The notes: generated by a model from the letters alone, not told the origin. 55,499 nucleotides of DNA from a virus (IMGVR_UViG_3300030207_002164:1-55499), one strand, 5' to 3'; shown: positions 5,994 to 25,409, counted from the first letter of the stretch. Made by a program: numbers and translations.

Positions 5994-6004
5994 AATATAT
6001 AATT

Positions 6005-9507: not shown

Positions 9508-9672
9508 ATGGCAAAATCAAAAGGCTTAGGAGACTCAATAGAAAAAATAACTAAAGCAACAGGAATAAAGGCTTTGGTTGAAAAATACACTCGCCCTCGC
9601 GGTGGATGCGGTTGCGAGAAGAGAAAAGATAAATTAAATAAAATGTTCCCATATAAAAATGAAAACGTATGA
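9508..9672 (+). CDS. 54-aa GLGD...CGC protein (not in ORF track)
   Basis: MAKSKGLGDSIEKITKATGIKALVEKYTRPRGGCGCEKRKDKLNKMFPY, a recurrent phage small-protein motif. Confidence 0.85.
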   Translation: MAKSKGLGDSIEKITKATGIKALVEKYTRPRGGCGCEKRKDKLNKMFPYKNENV

Positions 9673-10255
9673 TTTATTTGTTGTCAAATTAGAAAGCACA
9701 ACAAAAGACACATTAGTTACAGACAGCGGTCTTGAGCTATATATAGACACTTCTTTTAATGAATTTGAGCACCGAACCACTGAAGGTCCAGTAGTGTGTG
9801 TTCCTTTTAAGTATGATACAGGGGTTGAAGTTGGAGACACATTGTATTTTCACCACCTGGTAGTTATGGGTGGAAATAACGATGGGCAGATATTTACAGA
9901 AGAAGACAATACCTACATAGTAAAGTACGATCCTAAGTTTGCGATAGCTAATCAAGCCATAGCATATAAAAGTCAAAAAGATGGTAAGATACGATGTCTT
10001 ACAGGGTGGTGTTTGTTAAAGCCTGTAGAGCAAGAAGAATTAAATCTTCACTCTGACATTATAGAGGTGGTAGACAATAGTGAAAAACTCCCAACAAAAG
10101 GAGAGGTGGCTTATTTATGTAAAGAAGGAGAGGAAATGGGGTTAGAGCCTGGCGATATTGTTGGGTTTAAAGAGAACAGAGATTACCGCCTAACCATAGA
10201 TGGTCAAGAATACTACCGCACACGTGCAGAAGATTTATACGGGGTCTATGTCTAA
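9659..10255 (+). CDS. groES: co-chaperonin GroES-like protein with two tandem GroES domains
   Basis: TDSGLEL..GPVVCVP..VEVGDTLYF and second unit WCLLKPVE..KGEVAY..LEPGDIVGF..IDGQEYYR. Confidence 0.8.
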   Translation: MKTYDLFVVKLESTTKDTLVTDSGLELYIDTSFNEFEHRTTEGPVVCVPFKYDTGVEVGDTLYFHHLVVMGGNNDGQIFTEEDNTYIVKYDPKFAIANQAIAYKSQKDGKIRCLTGWCLLKPVEQEELNLHSDIIEVVDNSEKLPTKGEVAYLCKEGEEMGLEPGDIVGFKENRDYRLTIDGQEYYRTRAEDLYGVYV

Positions 10256-10797: not shown

Positions 10798-10983
10798 ATG
10801 GCTGACTATAAGTGCGAATGCAATGAACATGAATTAGAATGTTCTAATGTTGTTATTAGAATAATAGAAGGTAAGGCTACACACGACATTAAATGTCCTT
10901 GCGGTAAATATATGAAGCTGTCAAACCCGAAAACAGGCATTGCCTCTCTTGGAAGAATGGACAGGAATGGTAGTAGTTACTAA
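10798..10983 (+). CDS. zinc-ribbon protein (FmdB-like)
   Basis: YKCECNEH...IKCPCGKYM. Confidence 0.75.
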   Translation: MADYKCECNEHELECSNVVIRIIEGKATHDIKCPCGKYMKLSNPKTGIASLGRMDRNGSSY

Positions 10984-13103
10984 TGTCTGCATTACTAAAT
11001 CTAGAAGAATATGAGGACCCTGCTGTCAAGATTTGTCCCAACGGTACGGAAGGTGAGATTATTGAACTCGGTGGGTTACTCATTTGCCTTCCAAAAAGGC
11101 CGCCGAAGAAACAAATTTTCGGACATAAAGAATCAAACTCTATGCAAATGTGGAGAAGGGTATCTATGCCGAAGGAACTGTCTCGTGTTAAATCTATGGA
11201 TGAGTGGGCGGAAATGCCAAGGGAGTTCAGAGAGAGGTTTCGTCCATATATCGAGGAAGAGTTTAGGCGTAGGCGTGAGGGTTTTTGGTTTTATAACAAC
11301 GGTACAGCTACATATATTACGGGGCGGCATTACATGATGCTACAATGGACCAAGCTAGATATTGGTTATCCATACTTTCTTAACTTTCAACGTGAAATCT
11401 TTTTACACATGGCTGCATGCGAAGCTGATCCACGTTGCATTGGTCAGCTTTATACTAAGTGCCGTCGTTCTGGGTATACTAATATATGCTCTGCAGTGCT
11501 TGTTGACGAAGCCACACAAGTTAAAGACAAACTTATGGGTATACAGTCGAAAACTGGTAAGGACGCTCAAGAGAATATTTTCATGAAGAAAGTAGTTTAC
11601 ATGTTTAGAAACTACCCATTCTTCTTCAAACCTATACAAGATGGTACAACTAATCCACGTATGGAGTTAGCTTTTAGGGAGCCATCAAAGCGTATCACTA
11701 AAAAGAACAAAACATCGCAGACAGGTGAGGCGCTTAATACTGTTATAAACTGGAAAAACACAACTAACAACGCATACGATGGTGAAAAGCTACACATATT
11801 GTATTTAGATGAGGCAGGAAAATGGGAAAAACCTACAGACATAAGAGACGCTTGGAGGATTCAGAGGACTTGTTTGATCGTCGGGCGAAAAATAGTCGGA
11901 AAAGCACTCGTGGGAAGCACGGTAAATCCGATGGACAAAGGAGGAAGTCAGTACAAAGATTTATGGAAGGATTCGGATCCGACAGAGAGGAATGCGAATG
12001 GTAGAACCAGATCTGGTTTGTATAGGCTGTTTATACCAGCATACGACTCACTAGAAGGTTTTTTTGATATATACGGGAACCCAGTAATCAACAATCCAGA
12101 CTCAGATGTAATGGGGGTAGATGGAGAACCAGTAATCGTTGGGGCAAAAACTTATTTAAAGAATGAGAGAGAATCTTTAAAAGAAGATGCATCTGAATTA
12201 AATGAGGTTATAAGACAATTTCCATTTACAGAAGATGAAGCTTTTAGAGATAGTATTGAGGGGAGCTTATTTAACGTAGGTAAAATATATGAACAGATTC
12301 AGTACAATGATGAGCTGTTTCCAAACCCAGTTGTAGTTGGTAATTTTGTATGGAAAAACGGAGAAAAAGACACGGAGGTTTTGTTTAGGCCCGATCCTAA
12401 TGGAAGATTTAGAGTTGCTTGGATACCACCAGAAGGTGTGAGAAATCAAAAGTCAACAGATAGGGGTAAAAGAGTACCGCCTAACTCTCATATAGGTTGT
12501 GGAGGTGTCGACTCCTATGATCTTGATTCTACAGTTGATGGAAGGGGGTCTAAGGGTTCTTTACATTTATACAACAAATTTAACATGGAGTATCCTTCAA
12601 ACACTTTTGTCTTGGAGTATGCATCTCGTCCACCTCTTGCAAAAATCTTTTATGAGGATGTTCTTATGGCTGCAGTTTTTTATGGTTATCCTATATTAAT
12701 TGAAAACAACAAGTACGGTATAGCAAGATACTTTGAGTCAAGGGGTTATGATGGTTACTTAATGGATAGGCCTGAGCATTTAAAAGCTCCAAACTCAAAA
12801 GTCAATGTAAAAACTAAAGGCATACCCTCAAACTCTCAAGATGTAATTCAGTCTCACGCTCAATCTATTGAAGCTTACATACACGCGCACGTTGGTATAA
12901 ATAGAGATTCTGGTGAATATGGTAGTATGTATTTTAACAGAACTCTTGAAGATTGGATAGGTTTTAAAATAGATAATAGAACAAAATTTGACCTTACAAT
13001 AAGCTCTGGTTTGGCTCTTTTGGCTTCTCAAAAAACTAAACCAAAACAAAAAACTAACTTTGCTGAGAAGAAGTTTTTTAGGAGATATAATGTGATCGGT
13101 TGA
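10983..13103 (+). CDS. terL: terminase large subunit
   Basis: Walker A KCRRSGYT, Walker B LYLDEAGK, coupling GST, nuclease GGVDSYD and C-terminal FDLTISSG. Confidence 0.95.
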   Translation: MSALLNLEEYEDPAVKICPNGTEGEIIELGGLLICLPKRPPKKQIFGHKESNSMQMWRRVSMPKELSRVKSMDEWAEMPREFRERFRPYIEEEFRRRREGFWFYNNGTATYITGRHYMMLQWTKLDIGYPYFLNFQREIFLHMAACEADPRCIGQLYTKCRRSGYTNICSAVLVDEATQVKDKLMGIQSKTGKDAQENIFMKKVVYMFRNYPFFFKPIQDGTTNPRMELAFREPSKRITKKNKTSQTGEALNTVINWKNTTNNAYDGEKLHILYLDEAGKWEKPTDIRDAWRIQRTCLIVGRKIVGKALVGSTVNPMDKGGSQYKDLWKDSDPTERNANGRTRSGLYRLFIPAYDSLEGFFDIYGNPVINNPDSDVMGVDGEPVIVGAKTYLKNERESLKEDASELNEVIRQFPFTEDEAFRDSIEGSLFNVGKIYEQIQYNDELFPNPVVVGNFVWKNGEKDTEVLFRPDPNGRFRVAWIPPEGVRNQKSTDRGKRVPPNSHIGCGGVDSYDLDSTVDGRGSKGSLHLYNKFNMEYPSNTFVLEYASRPPLAKIFYEDVLMAAVFYGYPILIENNKYGIARYFESRGYDGYLMDRPEHLKAPNSKVNVKTKGIPSNSQDVIQSHAQSIEAYIHAHVGINRDSGEYGSMYFNRTLEDWIGFKIDNRTKFDLTISSGLALLASQKTKPKQKTNFAEKKFFRRYNVIG

Positions 13104-13108
13104 TTTAC

Positions 13109-13116
13109 TATATTTG
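13109..13116 (+). promoter_or_regulatory. -7 element TATATTTG upstream of portal
   Basis: Consensus match in terL-portal spacer. Confidence 0.7.
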
Positions 13117-13138
13117 CATAAAGTAATTATACTCAATA

Positions 13139-15574
13139 ATGATCAGCAATTCAAGTTATCGTAGTGGTGGTAAGTTTCCTGATCCTTTGGTATCAAAAGA
13201 TATTAAGGATGATGTGGCATACGGTTTAAAGTATGCGAAGGCAATAGAAAGTCAATGGAACGCTACTAATGAAGAAAATTCGCTGCAAGAGAAAAGAAGA
13301 AGAACTTTTGAAAGAAACAGGGATTATGCACAAGGGGTGCAAAACACAACAATCTATAAAAGACTTTTAACTTCTTTAGATCCAAATGCAGGAGATGGTA
13401 GTTTATTAAACCTTGACTACACGCCAGTTCCAATACTACCAAAATTTGTAAGAATTGTTGTAAATAAAATTTTATCAAGAAACCCTTATCCAAATTTAGA
13501 GGCAATAGATCCTCTTTCTTCCTCTGAAAAAGACAGAGAGAAAAATCGCTTGAGAATGCAGGTAGCGATGAAGGATGAGCTAAAGAAATTAAAACAAGAA
13601 ACTGGAGGTTTGGTTTTGGATAAAGATCCAGAATCTCTTCCAGACACGCTAGAGGAGGCTGAAATATTTTTAGAGACTAATGTGAAGACTGACGCAGAAA
13701 TATCTGCGCAGATTGCAACAGCAATGACTCTTTCTTGGAATAACTTTAATGACGGCACGTTCAGAAGATGCGTAAATGATCTTGCAGCTCTAGGCATGGC
13801 TGTTGTTAAAAGACATAATGATCCTAATTATGGCATAACAACAGAATATGTAGATCCCTGTAAGTTTATCCATAGCTACACAGAAGATCCTAATTTTGAC
13901 GACATAACTTACGCTGGTAGCATTAGAACAATACCTATTCAAGAGCTAAAAAGATTAGCTGGGGATCAGCTTACAGAGGAGGATTACAAAAAAATTGCTA
14001 AGAAAGCAAAAGGAAACAAGTCTGATGCTTATCAGTCAAACTATGATCCAGCAACAAAAAGAAGCGGTTATGGTTATGATGATCACACCGTTCAAATATT
14101 AGACTTTGAATTCTTATCTGTTGATTGTATGTTTTTTGAAGAAAAAACAAATAGACACGGAAACACAAACTTTTTTTATGAGGGGTATTCTTATAAAGAA
14201 AAGTTAAACAGCATGACTGAGCGTATTGCTCATAAGATGGATGTCACTACTGTTTATGAAGGTATGTACATTATGGGAACTGACTATGTTATCAACTACG
14301 GTCAGAAACACAATATTCCAAAAAATATTCACGACATAAGCAAAGCTAAACTTTCTTATTCTGTTGTTGCTACAAATATTGGTAAAATGATGCCTAAATC
14401 TATGGTAGATAGCTGCATAGGTTTTGCTGATATGCTTCAGATTACACACTTAAAGATACAGCAGGCTATTGCTAAAGCTAAGCCAGATGGGTTGATTATT
14501 GATATTGAAGGTCTTGAAGGTGTTGAAATAGGAAAAGGCGGTGAGTTACAGCCACTTGATCTTCATGATATATACGAGCAGACTGGTGTATTCTACTACA
14601 GAAGCAAGAATGCTGAGGGTGGATTCCAAAACCCACCTATACGTGAGATAGGAAACACTATACGTAATATTAATGAGCTTATTGCATTATACAATCACTA
14701 CCTAAGATTAATAAGAGATGCAACAGGTATTAATGAAGCCATGGACGCTTCCTCTCCAAAAGGTGAAGATCTTGTTGGAGTTAGAGAGCAAGCTATAGCT
14801 GCTGGAAACAATGCTATATATGATATTACAAACGCTTCTATGATTCTATACAAAAAGGTTTGCGAGGACGTTGTAAAGTGTTTACAGATTATACCTCCAG
14901 ACTCTACTTTAAGAACAATTTATGAAAATGCTATAGGTAAAGAGAACATGAAGGTTTTATCTTCTTTCTCTGATTTACCTATGTATAATTTTGGAGTGCA
15001 GGTTCATAAAGAAATGGAATCTGCAGAGAAGCAATACTTAGAGCAAAGTATACAAATAGCTTTGGGCCAGAAGGAGCTTGACCTTGAAGACGCTATGATG
15101 ATAAGAAGCATGAAAGATATCAATCAAGCTGAAAGACTTCTTGTAGTAAAAAGAAAGAAAAGGCAGAAAGAGCAGCAGCAGATGGCGCAGCAAAACTCTC
15201 AAATGCAGCAACAGCAAGCTCAGCAAACTGCACAGCAAGGCGCTCAACTTAAGCAGCAAGAAATGCAGCTGCAAGCTCAGCTTGATGCACAGCAAGTTCA
15301 AATTAAAGCACAGGCAGAAATACAAGTTGCTACGGCGCTTCATGAGTTACATAAAGAGATTGAAACTATTAAAGCTCAAGCAACTCTAGGATTCAAGACT
15401 GATGATCAAGAGTTCAAAGAAAAAATTGAAGTTTTGAAGGAAGATAGAAAAGACGATAGGCTTATGGTACAGACTGGTCAACAGAGAGCTCTGCAGAATG
15501 AAAGAATGAATATGCAATCGCCTCAACAAAATATTAATGCTGACGAACTAATTGATAACGCACTAAATAATTAA
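13139..15574 (+). CDS. portal protein
   Basis: 811 aa after terL; PVPILPKFV, RDATGINEAMD motifs; Gln-rich C-terminal coiled barrel typical of podovirus portals. Confidence 0.9.
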   Translation: MISNSSYRSGGKFPDPLVSKDIKDDVAYGLKYAKAIESQWNATNEENSLQEKRRRTFERNRDYAQGVQNTTIYKRLLTSLDPNAGDGSLLNLDYTPVPILPKFVRIVVNKILSRNPYPNLEAIDPLSSSEKDREKNRLRMQVAMKDELKKLKQETGGLVLDKDPESLPDTLEEAEIFLETNVKTDAEISAQIATAMTLSWNNFNDGTFRRCVNDLAALGMAVVKRHNDPNYGITTEYVDPCKFIHSYTEDPNFDDITYAGSIRTIPIQELKRLAGDQLTEEDYKKIAKKAKGNKSDAYQSNYDPATKRSGYGYDDHTVQILDFEFLSVDCMFFEEKTNRHGNTNFFYEGYSYKEKLNSMTERIAHKMDVTTVYEGMYIMGTDYVINYGQKHNIPKNIHDISKAKLSYSVVATNIGKMMPKSMVDSCIGFADMLQITHLKIQQAIAKAKPDGLIIDIEGLEGVEIGKGGELQPLDLHDIYEQTGVFYYRSKNAEGGFQNPPIREIGNTIRNINELIALYNHYLRLIRDATGINEAMDASSPKGEDLVGVREQAIAAGNNAIYDITNASMILYKKVCEDVVKCLQIIPPDSTLRTIYENAIGKENMKVLSSFSDLPMYNFGVQVHKEMESAEKQYLEQSIQIALGQKELDLEDAMMIRSMKDINQAERLLVVKRKKRQKEQQQMAQQNSQMQQQQAQQTAQQGAQLKQQEMQLQAQLDAQQVQIKAQAEIQVATALHELHKEIETIKAQATLGFKTDDQEFKEKIEVLKEDRKDDRLMVQTGQQRALQNERMNMQSPQQNINADELIDNALNN

Positions 15575-15576
15575 TA

Positions 15577-16017
15577 ATGGCTAACAATGTAAACTTAGAC
15601 ATATCAGATGAACTAGATATAACTTGTAGACAAGGTGACACATTTAGTTTAGGGTTGACTGTAAAAAATTCATCAGGGACTGCAATTGATATATCTGGTT
15701 ATGCATGGTATATGCAAATAAAAACAATTGGATCCTCTAAAAACCCTTCTGTGTTGATGACTGGTACTGGAAATACCAAAAACATAGGCGGTAGACAATT
15801 GCCAGGAACAAAAATTACCACTTCAGCAACATCTGCTGGGCTCCTTACTATTACAATTTCTTCTGAGGGTATGTCTGTTTTTCCAAAAGGAAATTATGAG
15901 TATGATATTCAGTTTAATACAAATGGAACAACACCTGTCTCAGGCACTGATACAACTTTATTAAGAGGTAGATTTGTTGTAAACTCTGATATTACAGAAA
16001 CTAATAGAGAAAGATAA
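15577..16017 (+). CDS. virion protein (BppU-N-like)
   Basis: DITCRQGDTFSL...IDISGY...YEYDIQ...LLRGRFVV. Confidence 0.7.
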   Translation: MANNVNLDISDELDITCRQGDTFSLGLTVKNSSGTAIDISGYAWYMQIKTIGSSKNPSVLMTGTGNTKNIGGRQLPGTKITTSATSAGLLTITISSEGMSVFPKGNYEYDIQFNTNGTTPVSGTDTTLLRGRFVVNSDITETNRER

Positions 16018-16154
16018 TGAGTGTTACTGTAAATAACACAGCAAGCTTTGTTGAGATCGTTGAACCGACTAGATACATAGTTGAGGTGGTTCCACCGACA
16101 TCTTATATAGTATTACATAATTCACCTACAACATATAATATAGACGTAACATGA
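16017..16154 (+). CDS. 45-aa beta-repeat protein (not in ORF track)
   Basis: MSVTVNNTASF-VEIVEPTRYI-VEVVPPTSYI-VLHNSPTTYN-IDVT; coupled at both ends (TAATG, ATGA). Confidence 0.7.
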   Translation: MSVTVNNTASFVEIVEPTRYIVEVVPPTSYIVLHNSPTTYNIDVT

Positions 16155-18640
16155 AGAATAAAAGTTATTTATTAGTCATTTTGTTTTGGCTGCTAACATT
16201 GTGTGTGTTAGGTCAACCTGGTAACGACAGTATACCGCCTCCTTGTTCTGGTGTTGAAAATCTACAAGGTCAGATTGATTGCTTTCCTTTTGCGCCTAAT
16301 CAAGGTCAACTACAGGTTATGTGGACTATACCTGAGCCTGGATGTAATCCAGTTGGATTCTACAGAGGTGATGACTTAGACGACCTACAGTTTGTGCCAT
16401 ACGGCCAGTGGTTTAATGGTAGTTTTTATGGTGGCGTTCCATCTTCACCTGTATCAAATGATGAGTACTATTTTATAGTAGAGTCTCCTGGTGAGGTTAT
16501 GGATACACTTGTGATTGAAAATCCAAATTGCGGTATTGGTTGCTTAGACCCAGTGGCATCTAACTACAATCCTTTTGCTGGTATAGAGAGTGAGTTTGGG
16601 GAGTCGTGTCAATATGGCGAAGTGTCAGAATGTGGTAATACATTCACACAAAAAGTCTATGTAAGTATAACTGCAGATACATATTCTCAGTGGGAAACGA
16701 GCTGGGAGATAGTTACTACGGACAGCATCCCCATAGTTCTTGCTAGCGAAGATATAGGTTTTTATCAAACAGAGGGATTAAATGTAACAACAGAATACTG
16801 TATACCTCTTGGAGCAGAGTTTACATTCAATATATACGACACATTTGGAGATGGACTTGCAGGATCTACAACGGGAGGATTTACAGATGGAGATGTTCTT
16901 GTATATACAGAGTGTGGTAATACTATATACAGCATACTACCTTTTGAGGGTCAGAATCCTGATTACGGATATGAAGCTGTTAGTGTACCTAACCTATTAA
17001 ACCCATGTCCCCCAGACAACCCTCCGTTTGGGTGCTTAGATCCAAACTACTTAGAGTTCAACTCTCTCGCTACAAACAACGATTCTAATCTATGCGTAAC
17101 TACTGCTATTCCAGGCTGCCTTAACGAGAACGCATTCAACTACGATCCAGAGGCAAATATCATGGATTACATTCCTGAGTGTGAATATACCCTTATGTTA
17201 TTTGACGGAGGAGGCGATGGATGGGACGGATCTTACTTAGGTGTTGTGCAGAACGGCGAACCTATTGGTGCGTTTACATGCACAGAAGAGCAAGTATTCT
17301 ATGATATAACAGTAAGCTCTCAAACACACGTAGAGTTTAAGTTTTACGAAGTTGAGTTTGGTAGTTTCTTTGGGGAGGGAGGTACAAGCACTGATGTATC
17401 ACAATGTGGATTTAAACTAATAAGCCCTAACGGTAATATAGTCTTTGAGAAGGGAACTAATCCTTGGTTAGATCCTATAGATCCTGACGAAGTATATACG
17501 CCTTACTTAAGATGCGGTAACTACTGCGAGCCTTACACATACGGATGTACAGACGAGGCTGCGCAGAACTATGATAGTGATGTTAACACAGAGGATGGTA
17601 GTTGTTACTACCAAGCTGGCTGTGCACAAGCTGGTTATTTAGAATATTACACGCAAGGATATGAAGCTGATTATGATGATGGTAGTTGTAATACTATTGC
17701 TGTGTTTGGATGTATGGATGAAGAAGCATTTAACTACAGCGCAGAAGCAAATGTAGATAACGAAGGCTGCATACCTGTAGTTCTAGGTTGTATGAATCCT
17801 CTAGCCTATAATTACTTACCATCTGCAAACGTCGATGACGATAGCTGCATACCTTACATATATGGATGTATGGACCCAGGTGCATATAACTACAACCCCA
17901 ATGCAAATATAGATGACGGAGAATGTGAGCCATTTATATATGGATGCACTGACAATACTATGTTTAATTATAACCCTGCTGCAAATGCCGAATACGACCC
18001 TACTAATTGTGAGCCTTATATCTATGGTTGCACCGATCCTAGCATGCTTAACTATAACTCATCCGCTAACACAGAAGATTTTAGCTGTATTCCTTACATT
18101 TACGGTTGTACTGATCCTACTGCCCTTAATTATGATGAGTTGGCTAATACAGACAACGGCTCGTGTATTGAAGTATTAGTCGACTGCATGGATCCTGATG
18201 CATTCAATTATAATGAGTTAGCTAACACTTCTGACGAAGAAGTTTGCTTATATGATGCAGGATGTATAGGTGGGCCTGGTGAGCCATACTGGCTTAACGA
18301 TGGTTGCTATGCTTGGATCATAGACATCGACCCATACTGCTGTGAGATTGCATGGGATGAAACGTGCGTAGATCTTTACTCGTACTGCGAGCAAGGTTGG
18401 CCGCAGGGAGTGCTAGAAACAACAAGAGATATAACCGTATATCCTAACCCTGCAAGCATGATCTTAAACGTGCAGGCCCCCGTAGGAGCTATTACAAGCT
18501 TATATAACGCATTTGGTCAGCTTGTAGTGGTTGGGACTACAGACAGTACAATAAATCTCTCACAGCTCTCTAATGGCGTGTATGAGGTTGTAATAGAATA
18601 TAATGGAATAATTATTAACAAGAAAATTATAAAATCATGA
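16151..18640 (+). CDS. Cys-rich repeat protein with signal peptide and C-terminal type IX secretion (type A) sorting domain
   Basis: Signal peptide ending VLG-Q; 12 GCxDxxAxNY-type repeats; CTD VYPNPAS...LYNAFGQLV...INLSQLSNGVYEVVI...KKIIKS. Confidence 0.9.
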   Translation: MKNKSYLLVILFWLLTLCVLGQPGNDSIPPPCSGVENLQGQIDCFPFAPNQGQLQVMWTIPEPGCNPVGFYRGDDLDDLQFVPYGQWFNGSFYGGVPSSPVSNDEYYFIVESPGEVMDTLVIENPNCGIGCLDPVASNYNPFAGIESEFGESCQYGEVSECGNTFTQKVYVSITADTYSQWETSWEIVTTDSIPIVLASEDIGFYQTEGLNVTTEYCIPLGAEFTFNIYDTFGDGLAGSTTGGFTDGDVLVYTECGNTIYSILPFEGQNPDYGYEAVSVPNLLNPCPPDNPPFGCLDPNYLEFNSLATNNDSNLCVTTAIPGCLNENAFNYDPEANIMDYIPECEYTLMLFDGGGDGWDGSYLGVVQNGEPIGAFTCTEEQVFYDITVSSQTHVEFKFYEVEFGSFFGEGGTSTDVSQCGFKLISPNGNIVFEKGTNPWLDPIDPDEVYTPYLRCGNYCEPYTYGCTDEAAQNYDSDVNTEDGSCYYQAGCAQAGYLEYYTQGYEADYDDGSCNTIAVFGCMDEEAFNYSAEANVDNEGCIPVVLGCMNPLAYNYLPSANVDDDSCIPYIYGCMDPGAYNYNPNANIDDGECEPFIYGCTDNTMFNYNPAANAEYDPTNCEPYIYGCTDPSMLNYNSSANTEDFSCIPYIYGCTDPTALNYDELANTDNGSCIEVLVDCMDPDAFNYNELANTSDEEVCLYDAGCIGGPGEPYWLNDGCYAWIIDIDPYCCEIAWDETCVDLYSYCEQGWPQGVLETTRDITVYPNPASMILNVQAPVGAITSLYNAFGQLVVVGTTDSTINLSQLSNGVYEVVIEYNGIIINKKIIKS

Positions 18641-18813
18641 AAGTAGATTGGATTAACAGCTGGAAAGCTGGAAACAAAAAAGAGAAATACCATTTTTCTC
18701 TTAGATTAGGAACTCTAGTTGTGTTTGAAATAAAAGCATGTTTTTTTTGTGACGGACTTTGTTCAAATCAAAAATTTAGATTTATGATACTCAACTTTGG
18801 ATTTCAATTCTAA
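18637..18813 (+). CDS. 58-aa amphipathic beta-strand protein (not in ORF track)
   Basis: MKVDWINSWKAGNKKEKYHFSLRLGTLVVFEIKACFFCDGLCSNQKFRFMILNFGFQF; coupled at both ends. Confidence 0.75.
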   Translation: MKVDWINSWKAGNKKEKYHFSLRLGTLVVFEIKACFFCDGLCSNQKFRFMILNFGFQF

Positions 18814-19886
18814 TGACACATAAAAAAGATTTAACTGTACTTGTCTATGCTATAATTATGATTGTAGCCTTTATTCTGGGCACAACTCTTGAGGCAAAAG
18901 GACAAACATTAAAGAAAACATTTAAGTACGCCACATTTTACACTGCATTTAGCGGTGGTAATTCTGTAGCTGACGATAACATATACTCCGTAACAAATGG
19001 CTTACAGACTAATGTTGTTGAAACTCCATTCGATTATTCTATTACAGCTGGTGTTCGTAAGATCGCTAGGTTTGGATATGAGAACAGGGCTAATGTATTC
19101 TACGACGGTACAGAAAAATCTTATAGTGATGCAGCAAACATTGGTAAAGTAAAAGGTTTTGAGTTTTTATTTGAAGCTGACTGGCGTAGACAGCAGGGCA
19201 GAAACTTCTTGGATCAGGATTACTTCTTGCGCTATGTAGCAAAAAACTGGATAGCAAAAGCAGAATATTTACAAGACGGTTTTGCAGATGTAGAATACTT
19301 TGAGGGTTCTGAGCGATTTAGACTTAATGTAAATGACCGCCTCAGTTTTAACATCGGTATGGCTCAGCGTATATCTGAGCCTTACGGGTATAACCCTTTA
19401 GAAGAATGGGTTTTATCAAACAATAACATCCACTATACCAGTCTTGCTCTACAAGAAGGTTATACTGTAGACGTACAAGGCGGTGAATACTTTGCGCCCG
19501 ATGGCACACTTGTAGCAAACAGCGTTGATGTATGGGAGCAGGTTATTATACCTCAAGTTATTGACGACTATGTAGCCAGGAAGAGAAGTGAGCTTCCGAG
19601 TGTATGGAACTATTCTTTAGTAGTTGGATATGATTATTACAAGTATTCTAAAGAGTTTTGGCTTCACAGCTGGGCCAGTGTAATGCCTTATCATCTTAAG
19701 ACTAATGATGAATTTTCTTATTTTGAAACCACCGAAGGGGGGCAATGGATAGATTACGGTGCAGGCCTTATCTTTGGATGGAGATTAAACAAGAGTCTTG
19801 GTGTATTCTTAGAGGGTAAATACAATAAGTATTGGAATCGAGAATGGCATGATTTCTCTGTCGGACTAAACTATGTGATATTGTAA
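18813..19886 (+). CDS. predicted outer-membrane beta-barrel protein
   Basis: Signal peptide ending AKG-Q; many aromatic-girdled amphipathic strands; terminal GLIFGWRLNKSLGVFLEGKY...DFSVGLNYVIL. Confidence 0.8.
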   Translation: MTHKKDLTVLVYAIIMIVAFILGTTLEAKGQTLKKTFKYATFYTAFSGGNSVADDNIYSVTNGLQTNVVETPFDYSITAGVRKIARFGYENRANVFYDGTEKSYSDAANIGKVKGFEFLFEADWRRQQGRNFLDQDYFLRYVAKNWIAKAEYLQDGFADVEYFEGSERFRLNVNDRLSFNIGMAQRISEPYGYNPLEEWVLSNNNIHYTSLALQEGYTVDVQGGEYFAPDGTLVANSVDVWEQVIIPQVIDDYVARKRSELPSVWNYSLVVGYDYYKYSKEFWLHSWASVMPYHLKTNDEFSYFETTEGGQWIDYGAGLIFGWRLNKSLGVFLEGKYNKYWNREWHDFSVGLNYVIL

Positions 19887-20170
19887 TGGCTAAACAAATT
19901 GGAGAAGATACTAAAGTAACCTTTGACCTTAAGACAATAGGTATGGGTGTAGCAGGGCTAGCAGCTCTTATAGGGATGTGGTTTACATTACAAGCTGACA
20001 TTGCTTTGGCTAAAGAATTACCAGAACCAGCAGATCCAGAGATTACACGCATGGAGTTTGATATGAAGGACCAGCTAGTACGTCAAACAATTATGACAAC
20101 TCAAGAAGATGTGTCAGAGCTAAAAGAAGATCTAGACCGCATCGAAGAAAAAATAGATAAACTGCAATGA
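19886..20170 (+). CDS. single-pass membrane protein with C-terminal coiled coil
   Basis: TM IGMGVAGLAALIGMWFTL; heptads VSELKEDLDRIEEKIDKLQ. Confidence 0.8.
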   Translation: MAKQIGEDTKVTFDLKTIGMGVAGLAALIGMWFTLQADIALAKELPEPADPEITRMEFDMKDQLVRQTIMTTQEDVSELKEDLDRIEEKIDKLQ

Positions 20171-20766
20171 GATTAGCTAAAAAATATAATCAAGGTGGTA
20201 AGCCTTTGACTCCATTCCAAAAAGCTTTTGCTAAAGCTAGAGACGAAGGCAAAGAAACTTTTATGTTTGAAGGAAAGCCATACACTACTAGAACAGAACA
20301 AGAAGAGTATTCTAAATATATTCAATCAGGAGGGCCTAGGAGTATAGATGATATATTTAATTCTCCAGAAGCTATAGCAGAAAGAAAGCAGAGAGAAGAG
20401 GATTATCGGTGGCTGACATCCATGGATAATCCAGCGAACTGGGCGACTGGGGCTATTCAACCAATGGAAGGTTTTAATGACCCTATATTTAATATTTTAC
20501 TAGGTGGTAGGATGCTTCAAAAGCCTGCACAGCAGGCCTTAAAAACAGCGTTAGGTCCTAAGTATAATCCATTAAACCCACAGTATAATCTTAATCGAGG
20601 TGCGCGAGGTCTTGGGCCTGAAAACATATATGAAAGACTTGCTGGAAAAGTTAGTAGATACGGTACTAGAGATTATGCTCCAGGTGCAGGACCAAGCCCA
20701 ACTGTCGTTAATAGAATTGCAGATTTTATTACCGATAATCTACCATCTTTTTTAAGATCACAATGA
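20167..20766 (+). CDS. putative internal virion protein (YNQGG tag, FxxAFxxAR..G..F...G..YTT domain)
   Basis: KKYNQGGK; FQKAFAKARDEGKETFMFEGKPYTTR. Confidence 0.75.
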   Translation: MRLAKKYNQGGKPLTPFQKAFAKARDEGKETFMFEGKPYTTRTEQEEYSKYIQSGGPRSIDDIFNSPEAIAERKQREEDYRWLTSMDNPANWATGAIQPMEGFNDPIFNILLGGRMLQKPAQQALKTALGPKYNPLNPQYNLNRGARGLGPENIYERLAGKVSRYGTRDYAPGAGPSPTVVNRIADFITDNLPSFLRSQ

Positions 20767-21101
20767 TGAGGTTATTTTACATATGTTTACTTGCAATGAT
20801 ATCTGTTGGTATGGGTATACCAGACTCAGGGGTTTGTGTTGTAGAATTCAACGCTAGCTTCAATGCAGCTAACAGTGTGGATTGGATTGACGATTTAAGT
20901 GACTGTAAAGGGAGAAGAGTAGATATAGCTGCCGAACCAGACTTGCAAAGAGAACACAAGATTGTTGTAGTACCTACTGTAATTGTATTTAATGACGGAG
21001 AAGAAGTAGAAAGATTTCAAGCCAACATTATGATGCAGCTTGAAGCTACGCAGGATGATGTGCAAGAAGCGGTTGATGAAATTATAATGAGTGACTTCTA
21101 A
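20763..21101 (+). CDS. exported thioredoxin-fold protein lacking CxxC
   Basis: Hydrophobic N-terminus; VVEFNASFN replaces DFxAxWC; VDI...IVVVPTVIVFNDGEEVERF is a thioredoxin C-terminal signature. Confidence 0.8.
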   Translation: MMRLFYICLLAMISVGMGIPDSGVCVVEFNASFNAANSVDWIDDLSDCKGRRVDIAAEPDLQREHKIVVVPTVIVFNDGEEVERFQANIMMQLEATQDDVQEAVDEIIMSDF

Positions 21102-21403
21102 TGCCTAAGGTTAAGAAAAGAAAAAATAAAATGCCTAAGAAGTTCTCCATTAAAAGTGGAGATAAATCTCCTTCTGGAGGTTTAACGGCTAAGGGTGTAA
21201 GACGTTATCGTGCAGCTAATCCAGGCAGTAAATTAAAGACTGCAGTTACTGAGTCTTCACCAAAAGGTAAGAGAGCTAAAAGAAGAAAGTCGTTTTGTAA
21301 GCGCATGTGTGGAATGAAGAAGAGAAGAACTAGCGCTAAAACAGCAAGAAATCCTAAATCAAGAATAAACAAGGCACTAAGAAAGTGGCGCTGTAGATGT
21401 TAA
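21101..21403 (+). CDS. very basic small virion-associated protein
   Basis: GGLTAKG...RRKSFCKRM.GM...SRINKALRKW motif. Confidence 0.8.
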   Translation: MPKVKKRKNKMPKKFSIKSGDKSPSGGLTAKGVRRYRAANPGSKLKTAVTESSPKGKRAKRRKSFCKRMCGMKKRRTSAKTARNPKSRINKALRKWRCRC

Positions 21404-21407
21404 TGAT

Positions 21408-21599
21408 ATGAAAGCTTTAAAACTAAAAAAAGGAAAAAAATTAACCATATCTAGCAAGACCGTTTCAGTTGATCCACCTAGCGGGTATCACTGGATGGAA
21501 GAAAGTGGTAGGTACTACTTGATGAAGGGCGATTATAAACCCCATCCAGGCGCTGTGCCTAAAGCTAAATTTAAAACTGCAAACCATGCCAAATCTTAA
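21408..21599 (+). CDS. small basic hypothetical protein
   Basis: ORF track; PPSGYHWM...YKPHPGA. Confidence 0.75.
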   Translation: MKALKLKKGKKLTISSKTVSVDPPSGYHWMEESGRYYLMKGDYKPHPGAVPKAKFKTANHAKS

Positions 21600-21759
21600 A
21601 AAGAAAAAAGAATTCAAGAAAGGTGGTACGACTAAAGATGCTTGCTACCACAAGGTAAAGGCACGTTATAAAAAGTGGCCTTCTGCTTATGCTTCAGGTG
21701 CTTTGGCTAAGTGTCGTAAAGTTGGTGCTGCTAACTGGGGTAATAAGAGTAAGAACTAA
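21586..21759 (+). CDS. 57-aa basic protein with WPSAYAS motif (not in ORF track)
   Basis: MPNLKKKKEFKKGGTTKDACYHKVKARYKKWPSAYASGALAKCRKVGAANWGNKSKN; TAATG coupling. Confidence 0.8.
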   Translation: MPNLKKKKEFKKGGTTKDACYHKVKARYKKWPSAYASGALAKCRKVGAANWGNKSKN

Positions 21760-22031
21760 TGCCTAGGGTTCGCAAAACTAAAAAAGGTTTAGCACTTAAA
21801 CGCTGGTTTAAAGAGAAGTGGAGAACCCCAAGAGGTAAAAAAAGATATAGCGGTAAAGACAGAACATTTAGACCTACAGTTCGTGTGTCAAAAGATACGC
21901 CTGCTACATGGTCTGAATTAAGCCCTTCAGAAAAAAGAAGGGCCGCTGCAGAAAAACGCACTAAAGGTAGGGTTTCTAGATATAGAAGGAAAAGAAAGGT
22001 TAAGGTGAAAAAAAACAAATCAGATAAATAA
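21759..22031 (+). CDS. basic protein with LKRWFKEKW motif (DUF5872-like)
   Basis: GLALKRWFKEKW...RPTVRVSKDTP.TWSEL. Confidence 0.8.
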   Translation: MPRVRKTKKGLALKRWFKEKWRTPRGKKRYSGKDRTFRPTVRVSKDTPATWSELSPSEKRRAAAEKRTKGRVSRYRRKRKVKVKKNKSDK

Positions 22032-22032
22032 G

Positions 22033-22040
22033 TATATTTG
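22033..22040 (+). promoter_or_regulatory. -7 element TATATTTG at head of capsid operon
   Basis: Consensus match 17 nt before ATG 22058. Confidence 0.7.
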
Positions 22041-22057
22041 CATAAATAACTATTAAA

Positions 22058-22465
22058 ATGGCTACAGCAACAATACGATTAACTAGCGATATAACAGGCG
22101 ACGCTCTTTCTGTAAACGAAACAGCTACATTGACAAAGGCTAACTCAGCAGACGATGGATTAGATCAATTCACTGGAGTGAACACTCTTTATTTTGAGTC
22201 TACGCAGAGTGACACAAATGTAGTAGCTGCTGCAGATTACGTGGACACAACAGTTGCGCATAAAGTATATATTAGAAATGCAAGCTCTAGCGGCTTTGTA
22301 ACAGTTGATATAGACTCTAGTGCAAATGAACCGCTTGGTAGATTATATCCAGGGGATTGGACTTTCTTTCCATATGACGGAACATTAGATGTTGACATTG
22401 ATACTAGCGCTGCTGGTATGACTGTAGAAGTAGCTGTTTTATCTCAAGCTGCAGTATCATCATAA
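22058..22465 (+). CDS. virion beta-sandwich protein, paralog 1
   Basis: KVYIRN...LGRLYPGDWTFFP. Confidence 0.85.
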   Translation: MATATIRLTSDITGDALSVNETATLTKANSADDGLDQFTGVNTLYFESTQSDTNVVAAADYVDTTVAHKVYIRNASSSGFVTVDIDSSANEPLGRLYPGDWTFFPYDGTLDVDIDTSAAGMTVEVAVLSQAAVSS

Positions 22466-22476
22466 TAATTTAAAAC

Positions 22477-22872
22477 ATGGCAACATCAGCAACATTAACA
22501 TTAGATGCATCGGAGTTCACAGGGGGAGCTGCTTTCTCAGTGGAAACAACTTTTCTTAAGGCTGGGACTAGCGATGATATTACTCAATTTACTGGCCTTT
22601 CTCGAAGAGAGGTTTCAGCCGCAACAAACGACATATCTATTGTAGCTGCATCAGAGTATGCTGATAATCAGGCTGGAAAATTGTATTTTAAAAATACATC
22701 AACAACAGCTGCTAGCACATACATCTTAATGGAGGTTGGCAGTAATGTAATTATTGGTAGATTATATCCAGGAGATTGGATGTTAATACCTGTAGATGGA
22801 ACGGAGGACATTAAGGCTTCTACCTCTGCGGCAGGAATGAGTTATGAATTTGGATTTTTCCACGAAGGTTAA
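22477..22872 (+). CDS. virion beta-sandwich protein, paralog 2
   Basis: KLYFKN...IGRLYPGDWMLIP. Confidence 0.85.
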   Translation: MATSATLTLDASEFTGGAAFSVETTFLKAGTSDDITQFTGLSRREVSAATNDISIVAASEYADNQAGKLYFKNTSTTAASTYILMEVGSNVIIGRLYPGDWMLIPVDGTEDIKASTSAAGMSYEFGFFHEG

Positions 22873-22878
22873 TATAAG

Positions 22879-23280
22879 ATGGCAACAATAACAGCAACAT
22901 TTAGTTTAGACAGCTCAGATTTAACAAGCGATCCTTTAACTCTTAGGACTTCAGCTATACTTACTAAAGCTGGAACTGTTGTTGGTATGACAGACGCAAC
23001 TGGTTTAGCAAGAAAAACTACAACCGCAACAGACACAATAACTTTGTTTGATGGTGCGGACTATACCGACAACATGGCGGGTAAGATATATATAAAGAAC
23101 TTATCTACAATTGCGTCAGAGTTTATAACTATTTTTATGAACTCGGAAAAAATTGGTAGGCTGTATGCAGGCGATTTTGCTTTTTTGCCTTATGCTGCTG
23201 ATGCAGATACAAACGATTTCAAATACGCTCCTAGCGTTAGCACATCTTTAACTGTTGAATACATATTAATACACGAATAA
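22879..23280 (+). CDS. virion beta-sandwich protein, paralog 3
   Basis: KIYIKN...IGRLYAGDFAFLP. Confidence 0.85.
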   Translation: MATITATFSLDSSDLTSDPLTLRTSAILTKAGTVVGMTDATGLARKTTTATDTITLFDGADYTDNMAGKIYIKNLSTIASEFITIFMNSEKIGRLYAGDFAFLPYAADADTNDFKYAPSVSTSLTVEYILIHE

Positions 23281-23684
23281 TGGCAAAAGTAAGATCAACA
23301 TTATCTTTATCTAGCTCAGACGTTTTATCGTCTAACTTAAATCTTACTGTGGGTTCATCCATAGATGCAGATTCTGGAAATCTTAGCAGAGCTAAAGTAT
23401 TAAAAACTGCTGTTCATAACGACGCATTAGTCGTTTACAAATCAAACGATAAATTAGAAGCTGCTTATCTATACGTTAAGAATTTAGACGAAGAAAAAAC
23501 TAAATACATTTATTTATATCAAGACACTGATAACGATGATGTTTTTGCTAAGATTGGTGGGGGTGAGTTTGCCTTTATACCAGTTGCAATAGACAAAACA
23601 ATAAAAGTTTATGCAACACGCATTGACACTATGGTTGAGTACGGTGTGTTTGGATTGGATAGCTCAGCAGTAACATTATCATAA
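23280..23684 (+). CDS. virion beta-sandwich protein, paralog 4
   Basis: YLYVKN...FAKIGGGEFAFIP. Confidence 0.85.
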   Translation: MAKVRSTLSLSSSDVLSSNLNLTVGSSIDADSGNLSRAKVLKTAVHNDALVVYKSNDKLEAAYLYVKNLDEEKTKYIYLYQDTDNDDVFAKIGGGEFAFIPVAIDKTIKVYATRIDTMVEYGVFGLDSSAVTLS

Positions 23685-23694
23685 TAAAAAAAAT

Positions 23695-24291
23695 ATGGCA
23701 ACATTATCAAATACAGGAATGTCAAATCAAATGGCATTTGGTCAATTAGGAAGTGCATTTTTAGATACAGACGCGGGAGTTTTAGTTCCCCCTAATGGAA
23801 TGGTTGTAGTGGCTATTCAGTGTTTAGGTGATACTGAGTTTGATATTCTTACTGCTGAAGATCCAGATACGTTTATAAACACAATATCAGCTTCGCATGC
23901 AACTGCAGCAGATACTGTTTCTACAGGAGTTACTGCAGGTACGTTTATAGATATGGATGGGGACGCTACAGCTGAGGTAGGTGACTCTATGTATTTATCA
24001 TCGACGGGTGCTTTTATAGCGAAAGTAAAAAGAGTAGGATTTGACTCATCAGGGGCTGCTGACGCTTCAGCAATAGAGCTTGACAGACCAGCCACAGTAA
24101 CTACCGCTGCTCATTCTTTTGCAAGTAATACTAAAGGTGGAGGCGGTCTCATTCTGGACACGAGTAATGTATTCCCAAAGGGTATGACAATTTACGGTAG
24201 ATGGACTTGTGTAAGCCTTTCAGGAGATCAAGAAAGTGACGGAGTTGTATGTTACTTTGGTCCCGCTAAAGCAGGCAGCACTACACTATAA
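23695..24291 (+). CDS. virion structural protein
   Basis: FGQLGS...FPKGMTIYGRWT...VCYFG. Confidence 0.8.
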   Translation: MATLSNTGMSNQMAFGQLGSAFLDTDAGVLVPPNGMVVVAIQCLGDTEFDILTAEDPDTFINTISASHATAADTVSTGVTAGTFIDMDGDATAEVGDSMYLSSTGAFIAKVKRVGFDSSGAADASAIELDRPATVTTAAHSFASNTKGGGGLILDTSNVFPKGMTIYGRWTCVSLSGDQESDGVVCYFGPAKAGSTTL

Positions 24292-24313
24292 TAGAAATTA
24301 ACAATTAAATATA

Positions 24314-25396
24314 ATGGAAGAAAATAAAGAATCAGTTGGTGGCTTCGAGGTATTCGACACACCAGAACAACTGTCTGCATCTATGCAGTCAGAACCACAA
24401 AACGAAACAACACAAGAGGCTCCACAACAGGAGTCTCAACCTATTCAAGAAACTTCTACTCCTGAGGTAGCTCCTCAAGTAGAATCACAACAGTCAGGTC
24501 AACAGCAAGAGTCTGCTATGCCTGATGATAATTACTCCGATGAACAAGTCGAAGGTGCGGTTTTAGAGTTTCTAAGCGAGAAGCTTGGAAGAGAAATTAC
24601 GTCTTTTGATGGTTTTTCAGAGGGTGAAGGCACAACACAAATTGACGAAAGAGTTGAGGCTATTGCCAGGTTTGTTAATGACACTGGCAGAAATCCTAAT
24701 GATTGGTTTGCTTACCAGCAGTTAAATCCGTCTGAGATGGACGACGTAACAGCAGTTAAGGTGCAAATAGCAACAGAAAATCCAGAACTCACAGCTCAAG
24801 AAGTGGAACTGCTTCTCAACAGCAAGTATAATATCAACGATGACTTAGCGTCAGAAGATGAAATTAATGTTGCTAAACTTCAGCTTAAAATGGAGGCTAA
24901 TAAAGCTAGAAAGAATATTGAGGGCTTGCGCTCTAAATATTTAGCTCCACAACCTCAAGCGGCTGAACCTCGCTCTTTTGTTAACGATGATTGGATTGCC
25001 GATATGTCTAACGAAGTAGATAATCTGGAAGGTCTAGAGTTTGATCTTTCTGGAGATAAAAAATTTACATTCGGTTTTGATGAAGCATACAAGAATCAGT
25101 TAAAGCAGAGCAACGCCAGCATAGAAACTTTTTTTGATGAATTTGTCAATGAAGACGGAAGCTGGGATTTTGATGCGCTTTCATCAACTATGGCTGTAAG
25201 AGACAATATTGATAAAATAGTTTCTTCAGCTTACACTCAAGGGCTCAGCGATGGGCAAAGAGGTATTGTTGATAAAGCTGCTAATATTTCAAACAAGTCA
25301 CCACAGATGGGAGATCAAAATCAATCATCACCTCTAGCCGATCAAGTAAAACAAATAATGAGAGGTACTAGAGATAAGGTGACATTTAATATTTAA
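24314..25396 (+). CDS. capsid scaffolding protein
   Basis: Acidic disordered N-terminus plus helical body, immediately upstream of MCP. Confidence 0.75.
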   Translation: MEENKESVGGFEVFDTPEQLSASMQSEPQNETTQEAPQQESQPIQETSTPEVAPQVESQQSGQQQESAMPDDNYSDEQVEGAVLEFLSEKLGREITSFDGFSEGEGTTQIDERVEAIARFVNDTGRNPNDWFAYQQLNPSEMDDVTAVKVQIATENPELTAQEVELLLNSKYNINDDLASEDEINVAKLQLKMEANKARKNIEGLRSKYLAPQPQAAEPRSFVNDDWIADMSNEVDNLEGLEFDLSGDKKFTFGFDEAYKNQLKQSNASIETFFDEFVNEDGSWDFDALSSTMAVRDNIDKIVSSAYTQGLSDGQRGIVDKAANISNKSPQMGDQNQSSPLADQVKQIMRGTRDKVTFNI

Positions 25397-25409
25397 AAAC
25401 TAAGAAAAA

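Follow-up and report, generated by a model that had tools for sequence, protein, structure and literature searches.

Phage-encoded cargo of type IX secretion (by the T9SS) has already been published. Bellas et al. 2020 (PMC7468147) report T9SS cargo among the variable genes of 'Cryophage' (an endoglucanase, a GH39 protein and a PA14 protein), and de Jonge et al. 2019 (PMC6949934) report that gut phages encode proteins with a T9SS sorting domain upstream of their head section. Matrishin et al. 2023 describe proteins of P. gingivalis phages whose signal peptides follow the Q-rule, the Q-rule being the Bacteroidota pattern of a Gln at +1 after the signal peptide. According to Paillat 2025 (PMC12618676), PorV handles all type A C-terminal sorting domains (CTDs), and the PorP/SprF shuttles are linked to type B cargos (see also Gorasia 2022, PMC9143113). 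Here we describe a gene of the viral record IMGVR_UViG_3300030207_002164:1-55499 (the window, i.e. the whole stretch of 55,499 nt that was analysed). The gene lies at 16151–18640 on the plus strand and encodes a protein of 829 aa with a type A CTD, which we call the cargo. Apparently new are this cargo family and the trio of envelope proteins encoded next to it, a predicted outer-membrane (OM) beta-barrel (o357), a bitopic membrane protein (o94) and a putative thioredoxin-fold protein (o112). A literature search found no description of this cargo family or of the set of cargo, barrel, coiled-coil and thioredoxin proteins; supplements might list more such genes.

The cargo resembles the published phage T9SS cargos, as far as these are described in the two reports, in its type A domain and in being a hypervariable or mosaic gene, and cluster 2 of de Jonge et al. 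stands beside the head section, as here. Unlike the Cryophage cargos as reported, the window's family is acidic, Pfam-dark and built of Cys repeats, and it is tied to a barrel, a coiled-coil protein and a dead thioredoxin. With type A cargo of the host side (F. johnsoniae NucA, FspA and RemA; P. gingivalis RgpB), it shares the signal peptide and an Ig-like sandwich of ~70 aa at the extreme C-terminus, and the phage CTD superposes on the solved type A CTDs at a root mean square deviation (rmsd) of 1.7–2.5 Å. It differs from them in being phage-encoded, in having a body with no enzymatic or named domain and in being paired with a virus-only barrel. The pairs of type B cargo and PorP/SprF (SprB–SprF and PG1035–PorP) are similar in that the cargo gene directly adjoins an OM barrel gene, with a carrier or anchor logic. 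Unlike in these pairs, the CTD of the window is of type A and o357 has no PorP/SprF homology; it also has no Cys, unlike the reported twin-Cys tail of SprF.

The CTD covers aa 763–827 of 829 (18437–18631, plus strand). It scored 34.9 bits with PF18962 (Por_Secre_tail, cut-off 27 bits) and 34.2 bits with TIGR04183 (cut-off 23 bits). A six-frame search of the whole record gave exactly one CTD match, at 18437–18631 (39.8 bits). The NCBIfam scan at E ≤ 1 returned only type A-related models and no type B model (TIGR04131-type). The CTD was also the best-modelled part of the cargo in AlphaFold2 (AF2), with a predicted local distance difference test (pLDDT) of ~80–86 and seven strands at aa 762–828; the CTD fold of solved structures is an Ig-like beta-sandwich of 3+4 strands (PMC11285876). 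With Foldseek against the PDB, the sole match at E < 0.001 was 8glk chain D, which is the CTD of NucA in its complex with the F. johnsoniae translocon (TM 0.76, rmsd 2.5 Å, 30% identity), followed by the CTDs of FspA, RgpB, PorZ and mirolase. The VIA comparison of the CTD gave Z 9.2 for RgpB (rmsd 1.7 Å), 8.8 for NucA, 8.6 for PorZ, 8.4 for RemA and 8.2 for FspA, and hmmsearch against the PDB sequences returned CTDs only (8glk_D with E 1.1e-6). By two curated hidden Markov models (HMMs) and by its fold, the CTD is a genuine type A T9SS sorting domain, and secretion by the T9SS is predicted. Among close relatives, it was the least conserved part of the cargo (64–84%, compared with 90–98% for the other domains and 72–91% for the signal peptide and N-terminal segment), which fits a tag that is cut off.

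At the other end, a Sec signal peptide is predicted at aa 1–21 (16151–16213, plus strand), with the cleavage placed before Gln22 by the Bacteroidota Q-rule as read from the sequence. As a test, a sequence pattern (a hydrophobic run with Gln directly after it) was applied to the cargo family and to the open reading frames (ORFs) of the window. It was found in 51 of the 60 unique cargo family members and in 2 of the 32 other window ORFs. Among the nine members that failed, four show the pattern by eye, two are cut at the end of the locus and three have a long basic N-terminal extension. The other signal-peptide-like N-termini seen by eye in the window belong to the adjoining o357 and o112, plus the membrane helix of o94, and a stricter Gln pattern also flagged the ORF at 28780–30102. 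These results support the view that the cargo is exported and that its signal is the one with Gln at +1 seen in Bacteroidota.

The cargo contains 43 Cys and 124 D+E vs 12 K+R. No catalytic or enzymatic family was found in it by the Pfam and NCBIfam scans, and the PDB sequence search gave no match for the body outside the CTD. A first-pass annotation of the window, made by a model from the sequence alone, had proposed the same ORF, with an intact signal peptide and Gln at +1, no evident catalytic motif and a canonical type A CTD from about 18430. It had named the Por_Secre_tail HMM as a check. All of these points agree with the data above, the check included. As possible roles, it had proposed an adhesin, a decoy or a cargo that clogs the T9SS, with effects on gliding, aggregation or receptor availability; the co-inherited envelope genes next to the cargo, its chaining into the late genes and the lysis genes near it in relatives are additions to that annotation.

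Relatives of the cargo are numerous in viral data. Among 5,236 candidates, 363 homologues were found at E ≤ 0.001; nearly all of the 120 listed carry PF18962, and some carry MAM domains. Cargo relatives are encoded by 57 IMG/VR loci. When the window genes were mapped onto the loci, the cargo was seen to travel with o357, o94 and o112. The sole substantial bacterial match, in a scan that sees close relatives only, was a 4,047-aa ORF of a Flavobacteriales metagenome-assembled genome (MAG), with 35% identity over aa 130–724.

The linkage was counted from the barrel, in 80 loci that were the best among at least 585 stretches of IMG/VR encoding o357 relatives. A CTD-bearing ORF stood next to the barrel in 74 of the 80 loci, almost always ending at the barrel start and on the same strand. 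Five of the six misses have less than 700 nt upstream of the barrel. The sixth (L136) ends just after o94 and is therefore no example of a trio that lacks the cargo. Pfam matched a CTD at E ≤ 0.001 in 52 of the 61 complete upstream ORFs (45 at or above the cut-off, 7 below) and in nine it did not, and no other Pfam domain scored above its cut-off in any of the 61. In 73 loci, the sequence continues downstream of the barrel for at least 1.5 kb, and 68 of these contain both o94 and o112. Two loci (L047 and L048) encode cargo relatives with no barrel within 10 kb. Two tandem CTD-bearing ORFs were seen upstream of the barrel in three loci (L088, L094 and L097; at 5679–7766 and 7763–8998 in L088).

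The bodies of the cargos vary strongly. The 60 unique cargos contain 30–59 Cys (median 39) and 5–15 repeats, with a median acidic/basic ratio of 8.6. In L063, the barrel is 96% identical to that of the window; the cargo is 70% identical over the last 284 aa only and ~34% elsewhere. L015 and L024 have the repeat array in common (82% and 76% to the window) and not the beta domains (80–85% against 27–32%). The N-terminal half of the cargo is mosaic, and the adjacent genes remain conserved. Computed from these comparisons, the cargo is the fast-evolving, domain-shuffled first gene of a conserved, virus-only module of four genes.

The second gene of this module, o357 (18813–19886, plus strand), encodes an exported OM beta-barrel of a virus-only family, as judged from its predicted fold and signal peptide. 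The C-terminal NYxIF is conserved, and the protein contains no Cys. The AF2 model had a pLDDT of 72.5, and the top Foldseek matches were all OM barrels. With VIA, the best scores were Z 14.5 for the EstA translocator barrel, 13.7 for KdgM, 13.5 for Tsx and 13.4 for NanC. No Pfam family (E ≤ 0.01) or NCBIfam model matched o357, and none of its 120 best relatives listed has a Pfam domain. When 8,000 candidates were scored, at least 3,809 clusters fell into the family. It was found in 0 of 401 sampled bacterial genomes (from the class of the Flavobacteriales MAG), while the phage record, used as positive control, was matched with E 7.7e-187. In 50,697 GenBank phage records, neither o357 nor o94 had a match. 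Compared with known phage OM barrels (the BFVD porin, OmpC and autotransporter beta-domain; Phage_OMP, PF24653), o357 shares the fold class. Its sole close neighbour in BFVD is an unnamed protein with 23% identity, and in the ESM Atlas, Phage_OMP is among its nearest named clusters (score 0.94), which is a lead only.

The third gene, o94 (19886–20170, plus strand), would encode a bitopic membrane protein by the topology read from its sequence, with one membrane helix and an acidic, heptad-like, coiled-coil-like C-terminal part; the mean column identity of its alignment is 69%. The fourth, o112 (20763–21101, plus strand), probably encodes an exported thioredoxin-fold protein, to which sub-threshold matches of thioredoxin HMMs point (Pfam and NCBIfam scores under the cut-offs). 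An alignment with 19 homologues showed A31, N34, N37 and the P71–T72 loop to be invariant, with no conserved Cys pair and no conserved lipobox. Where a thioredoxin would have CxxC, the family has the invariant N34..N37. Between o94 and o112, the window has a specific insertion, o199 (20167–20766, plus strand, 199 aa), joined to both by overlapping stops and starts. It was found in 0 of 160 loci and matched no PHROG, Pfam, NCBIfam or PADLOC family. None of seven module or neighbour proteins matched a defence family of PADLOC.

The body of the cargo is a chain of beta domains and Cys-bracketed repeats, all on the plus strand. It begins with an FN3-like N-terminal beta domain (aa 28–129, 16232–16537; AF2 strands with pLDDT ~55–70), which is particular to this cargo sub-lineage and is swapped for another domain in relatives whose barrels are near-identical. 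An isolated repeat (repeat 1, aa 130–153, 16538–16609) leads to the acidic beta domain A (aa 161–290, 16631–17020; ETSW...YDTFGDGLAGS; pLDDT ~70–82). Here YDTFGDG stands at ~aa 229, and D230, G233, D234 and G235 are invariant in the alignment of homologues; domain A matched no Pfam family, and bacterial proteins match it partially. Repeats 2–3 (aa 294–344, 17030–17182) are followed by the acidic beta domain B (aa 346–458, 17186–17524; pLDDT ~75–80), with FDGGGDGWDG at ~aa 350. Then come nine tandem repeats of ~26 aa (aa 465–704, 17543–18262) and a Cys-rich C-terminal module (aa 705–752, 18263–18406; CYAW..DPYCC..WD..C..Y.YC) with invariant Cys, Trp and Asp columns. Within its DPYCC part (aa 725–746), C730, C731, W735, D736, C739 and C746 are invariant across 16 homologues. 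The Cys-rich module is 39–62% identical even among distant cargos.

The repeats were located by motif matches. The strict motif GC.[DN]..[AM].N[YF] gave nine matches in the cargo, and a relaxed motif gave ten (aa 131, 323, 466, 521, 547, 573, 599, 627, 653 and 679). Two degenerate copies at ~aa 295 and ~491 were read from the translation, which makes 12 repeats in total. The first-pass annotation had listed 12 Cys-paired repeats with nine in tandem, two acidic beta domains and a DPYCC...WD..C module, and each of these elements was recovered. TRF found no DNA-level tandem repeat in the array. As the array is invisible as a DNA repeat, its copies are old and kept by selection at the protein level.

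Structural comparison of the body gave weak results. The AF2 model of the cargo, built on an alignment of 16 sequences, had an overall pLDDT of 51.5, with the repeat array below 50. VIA matched the FN3-like domain to FN3 domains, including those of the lambda and T1 tail-tip proteins, at Z 7.0–7.6, which is in the noise range, and domain B to the Ca-dependent carbohydrate-binding module (CBM) 2xhh at Z 6.9, which is weak and also within noise. In the ESM Atlas, the cargo body had no named neighbour above lead level.

Cargo-type repeats occur in other proteins as well. With tblastn of the cargo against the 50,697 GenBank phage records, only the repeats matched, in five records; one of the proteins found by tblastn is a virion structural protein of Synechococcus phage S-CAM3. 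The repeats are also present in giant ORFs with a crAss muzzle domain (L053 and L056), which had no Por_Secre_tail match at E ≤ 0.001. In the window itself, two copies lie in a 2,381-aa virion structural protein (32649–39794, plus strand; phrog_14478), with the motif at aa 1792 and 1826 and a blastp match to the cargo of 46% over 50 aa (E 2.5e-4). In 65 of the 401 bacterial genomes, proteins of many sizes partially matched a single repeat or a single beta domain, and aa 294–344 was the cargo region matched most frequently. The body modules are not phage inventions. The 2,381-aa ORF contains 30 Cys. Downstream of it are a 350-aa ORF (39797–40849) with a C-terminal crAss muzzle domain (29.1 bits) and a second giant ORF of the virion module (45177–53879, plus strand, 2,900 aa; LPD38), matched by phrog_14770 and phrog_616 over its last ~900 aa; the 350-aa ORF lies between the two giant ORFs.

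The phage origin of the cargo gene, as claimed at first pass, is borne out by its surroundings. PHROG matches in the window include the terminase large subunit (10983–13103), the portal (13139–15574), a holin and a number of virion structural proteins. In IMG/VR, the window is listed as a virus, with a CheckV completeness of 86%, and the relatives of the cargo are in 57 viral loci. A chimeric assembly or host contamination was rejected, since the same gene order is found in dozens of independent viral contigs. Relatives of the terminase were found in 87 records (42–50% identical among the matches listed), from phages of Flavobacterium (68), Cellulophaga (15), Tenacibaculum (2) and Maribacter (1) and from one record with no named host. 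These four genera are T9SS-bearing Flavobacteriaceae, which is consistent with a host that has a T9SS. PorP/SprF (PF11751) was present in 11 of 13 genomes from the order of the one bacterial MAG with related modules. A tRNA search found no tRNAs.

From terminase to capsid, the plus-strand ORFs are spaced by at most 40 nt, with many ATGA/TAATG overlaps. A free-standing moron was rejected, as overlapping stops and starts chain the cargo into the late structural genes. Upstream, this is done by a 45-aa bridging ORF (16017–16154, plus strand), whose start overlaps the stop of o146 and whose stop overlaps the cargo start. It is kept in 1 of 160 loci and may not be a gene; it leaves no free intergenic space. 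Downstream, a 58-aa ORF (18637–18813, plus strand) overlaps both the cargo and the barrel (ATGA/TAATG). It had tblastn matches in 47 of 160 loci (59–68% identical in the eight printed) and ends in ...NFGFQF. In other lineages, the cargo stop directly abuts the barrel start. Flavobacterium phage elemoE, a cultured relative, has structural and capsid genes directly after the portal, with no cargo-type gene between them, so the stretch of ~8.7 kb from portal to scaffold/capsid in the window is an accessory island. A scan for sigma-70 promoters and for terminators gave no excess over shuffles (19 vs 22.1 and 3 vs 3.8), with a model that does not cover Bacteroidota promoters. Expression of the cargo together with the late structural genes would be the straightforward reading of this arrangement.

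The stretch or parts of it were present in 20 runs of 12 studies, which were all marine or seawater metagenomes among the matches listed. The run with the best coverage may be the source sample. Run X1 gave error-free contigs over parts of the region, e.g. 12000–16281 and 21660–25918, which also speaks against a chimeric assembly. A metatranscriptome library (X20), from the sample of the DNA run X7, had contigs on the cargo at 16785–17065 and 17381–17529, and others on parts of the barrel, o94, o112, the portal and the scaffold. A second RNA library (X21) had no contig on the stretch, which does not prove absence. The contigs of X20 are compatible with transcription in the sea, as a weak hint.

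With moderate confidence, we favour the following explanation. The cargo is a phage protein with a T9SS tag, encoded in a late operon and in a virus-only module, which would be exported via the T9SS and would act as a non-enzymatic binding protein, either on the surface or released. By analogy with the established pathway of type A cargo, Sec would export it late in infection, the signal peptide would be cut before Gln22 and the protein would be oxidised and folded in the periplasm. The CTD would be recognised, and the T9SS translocon of the host would pass the cargo to the PorV shuttle. After removal of the CTD, the cargo would be released or fixed on the cell surface. At release, infected cells and their debris could then carry it as a binding or coat protein, and it could occupy or shield surface structures there. 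Together with the envelope trio or in parallel to it, this may limit superinfection and keep progeny from being lost on debris. The binding or coat role is the least certain part of the explanation. We favour it because the Pfam-dark body is built from binding-type modules shared with virion tail and bacterial surface proteins, and because the gene is shuffled like that of a receptor-binding protein, made late and near lysis genes in relatives.

Several points weigh against this explanation. Its support is computational throughout. The CTD scores are only 8–12 bits over the cut-offs, nine of the 61 related cargos have no Pfam CTD match and seven more are sub-threshold. The body model is poor, as described above, and the resemblances to FN3 and CBM domains (Foldseek and VIA on the whole model) are at noise level. 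The repeats shared with the virion protein are two short copies and could be a generic spacer. The RNA evidence consists of contigs only, for which carry-over of DNA is possible. The adjacency to lysis genes in relatives fits a role in lysis at least as well as one as a coat or mask, and the module of the window is nowhere near the holin.

In an alternative, the four genes act together as a device for lysis. The trio of barrel, coiled-coil protein and dead thioredoxin would bridge the envelope and, as the final lysis step, open the outer membrane, which is the job of spanins, and the cargo would be either a working part or a passenger of the cassette. We consider this unlikely, and still a live candidate. 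The trio would occupy the inner membrane, the periplasm and the outer membrane, and no convincing spanin is annotated in the window; the sole spanin-type annotation is phrog_20969 on the ORF at 28222–28704 (E 2.5e-5). PHROGs were assigned to 125 flanking ORFs of 10 diverse loci, and a holin or endolysin was within 3.2 kb in eight of these. The holin abuts the cargo in L092 and L118, is 116 nt upstream in L104 and is separated by one ORF in L099. An endolysin directly follows the cargo in L137, and no lysis gene was found in L025 and L122. Moreover, three loci (L006, L008 and L071) have holins 96–97% identical to that of the window directly upstream of cargos that are 88–89% identical. As these near-identical relatives have the module after the holin and not after the portal, the four-gene module appears to have moved as a block.

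The wider count does not follow the holin everywhere. After removal of 16 loci with a short flank and 6 with no CTD-bearing ORF, 58 of the 80 barrel loci could be used for the upstream neighbour. The portal or o146 was upstream in 19, as in the window, a holin was within 1.2 kb in 12 and within 3.5 kb in another 5 (17 of 58 together), and 22 had other or unrecognised neighbours. The link to lysis genes is frequent but not universal, and the lineage of the window has the module in the head operon. Its holin-like gene (53879–54316, plus strand; phrog_3427, E 1.6e-22) lies 34 kb away from the module, and directly after it comes a gene for ribonucleotide reductase on the minus strand. Neighbourhood within a late operon is also weak evidence for function.

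The proteins of the module are like two-component spanins (lambda Rz/Rz1; Kongari 2018, PMC6139136) in combining an inner-membrane, coiled-coil-like protein with an OM partner, often beside a holin or endolysin in relatives. By eye, the architecture of o94 fits an i-spanin (N-in bitopic, with a periplasmic coiled coil); it matched no PHROG spanin family, and its periplasmic part has only ~55 residues. Unlike in spanins, the OM partner is a barrel of 357 aa and not a small lipoprotein, there are additional genes for a thioredoxin fold and a T9SS cargo, and the set of the window does not lie in a lysis cassette. An 829-aa secreted surface protein also has no obvious part in membrane fusion. Identity with a two-component spanin, as these are described in the cited report, was rejected, since the OM partner is a Cys-free barrel and a conserved lipobox is absent from o112.

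That the barrel serves as an anchor is similarly doubtful and equally live, and the two roles are not mutually exclusive. Here the phage would supply o357 as a shuttle or anchor that takes the cargo from the translocon and holds it on the surface, comparable to PorP/SprF in type B secretion. A precedent exists, as type B substrates are reported to be linked to, to depend on or to bind their cognate PorP/SprF barrels (PMC9143113, PMC12618676). The adjacency of the two genes is near-obligate (74 of 80 loci, same strand, stop and start often overlapping). The divergence of the barrel tracked that of the CTD (Spearman 0.62) and of the Cys-rich module (0.50) and not that of the array (0.25) or of the N-terminal half (0.17). 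After removal of the o94/o112 background, the values were 0.52 and 0.52 vs 0.18 and 0.19. These correlations come from 53 loci and 1,378 pairs that are not independent, and they are confounded by physical adjacency: because the CTD and the Cys-rich segments abut the barrel gene, plain linkage explains them as well as co-evolution does. Besides, no type B model matched at E ≤ 1, and o357 gave no PorP/SprF signal in Pfam or NCBIfam. An hhalign comparison of the o357 profile with 14 genuine PorP/SprF proteins, taken from the genomes screened for PF11751, gave a probability of 5.2%. The cargo relatives with no barrel within 10 kb (L047 and L048) also speak against an anchor.

A combination of these roles is more speculative, and we would rate it as rather improbable. 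The cargo and the trio would then be one release-stage apparatus spanning four envelope layers, with the barrel as the first dedicated partner of a type A cargo other than PorV. In this reading, the barrel would dock a shuffled binding fibre that is independent of lipopolysaccharide on the dying cell, and the trio would couple it to the opening of the outer membrane, as a Bacteroidota-specific spanin replacement that also shields debris from progeny phage.

It is very improbable that the cargo is a fibre or decoration protein of the virion that is assembled in the cytoplasm, with the CTD as a borrowed Ig-like sandwich and a signal peptide that does not work. The gene does lie inside a head and structural operon, its repeats are common to virion proteins and the FN3-like domain has a noise-level resemblance to the FN3 domains of tail tips. 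Against this, 51 of 60 family members have a Q-rule signal peptide, the 43 Cys are in paired repeats and the genes next to it encode an OM barrel and an exported protein with a thioredoxin fold. No PHROG virion family matched the cargo, elemoE has no such gene between its portal and capsid genes, and the giant virion ORFs that share the repeats have no Por_Secre_tail match at E ≤ 0.001. Least probable of all is that the cargo jams or saturates the T9SS and thereby stops gliding or host secretion, one of the options of the first-pass annotation, which has a valid CTD and a large, disulfide-rich cargo in its favour and nothing further, while such a protein is indistinguishable from ordinary large T9SS cargos, its diverse, shuffled bodies argue for selection on extracellular interaction over plugging and it is made late, when halting motility gains little.

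Some neighbouring genes were noted in passing. A 198-aa ORF at 9659–10255 (plus strand) had a full-length match (E 9.5e-41) to a PHROG annotated as phage 'co-chaperonin GroES' and is about twice the normal size of GroES. Directly after o112, the gene at 21101–21403 (plus strand) encodes a stand-alone DUF6321 protein (63.6 bits), which corresponds to the C-terminal ends of many PHROG families that differ greatly in length. It is followed at 21408–22031 by three small, very basic ORFs (63, 57 and 90 aa), kept in 32, 11 and 7 of 160 loci. Four tandem paralogous ORFs (22058–23684, plus strand; 131–135 aa, 26–41% mutual identity, starting with MAT or MAK) stand between the module and the scaffold/capsid genes. 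Related copies of them are present in other loci, and no family was found for them.

T9SS-bearing Flavobacteriia are major marine degraders of algal organic matter. With at least 3,809 barrel clusters and at least 585 IMG/VR stretches that encode barrel relatives, a large share of the phages of these bacteria appears to send proteins of their own into the envelope and the T9SS of the host. If the cargo is displayed on the surface, infected cells would, ahead of their burst, alter their surface and perhaps their stickiness or their susceptibility to phages. As a lysis device, should it be one, the set would make up for the missing recognisable spanins in the window. The phage CTD, if validated, would be a handy secretion tag. 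The module is an abundant and directly testable interface between phage and host.

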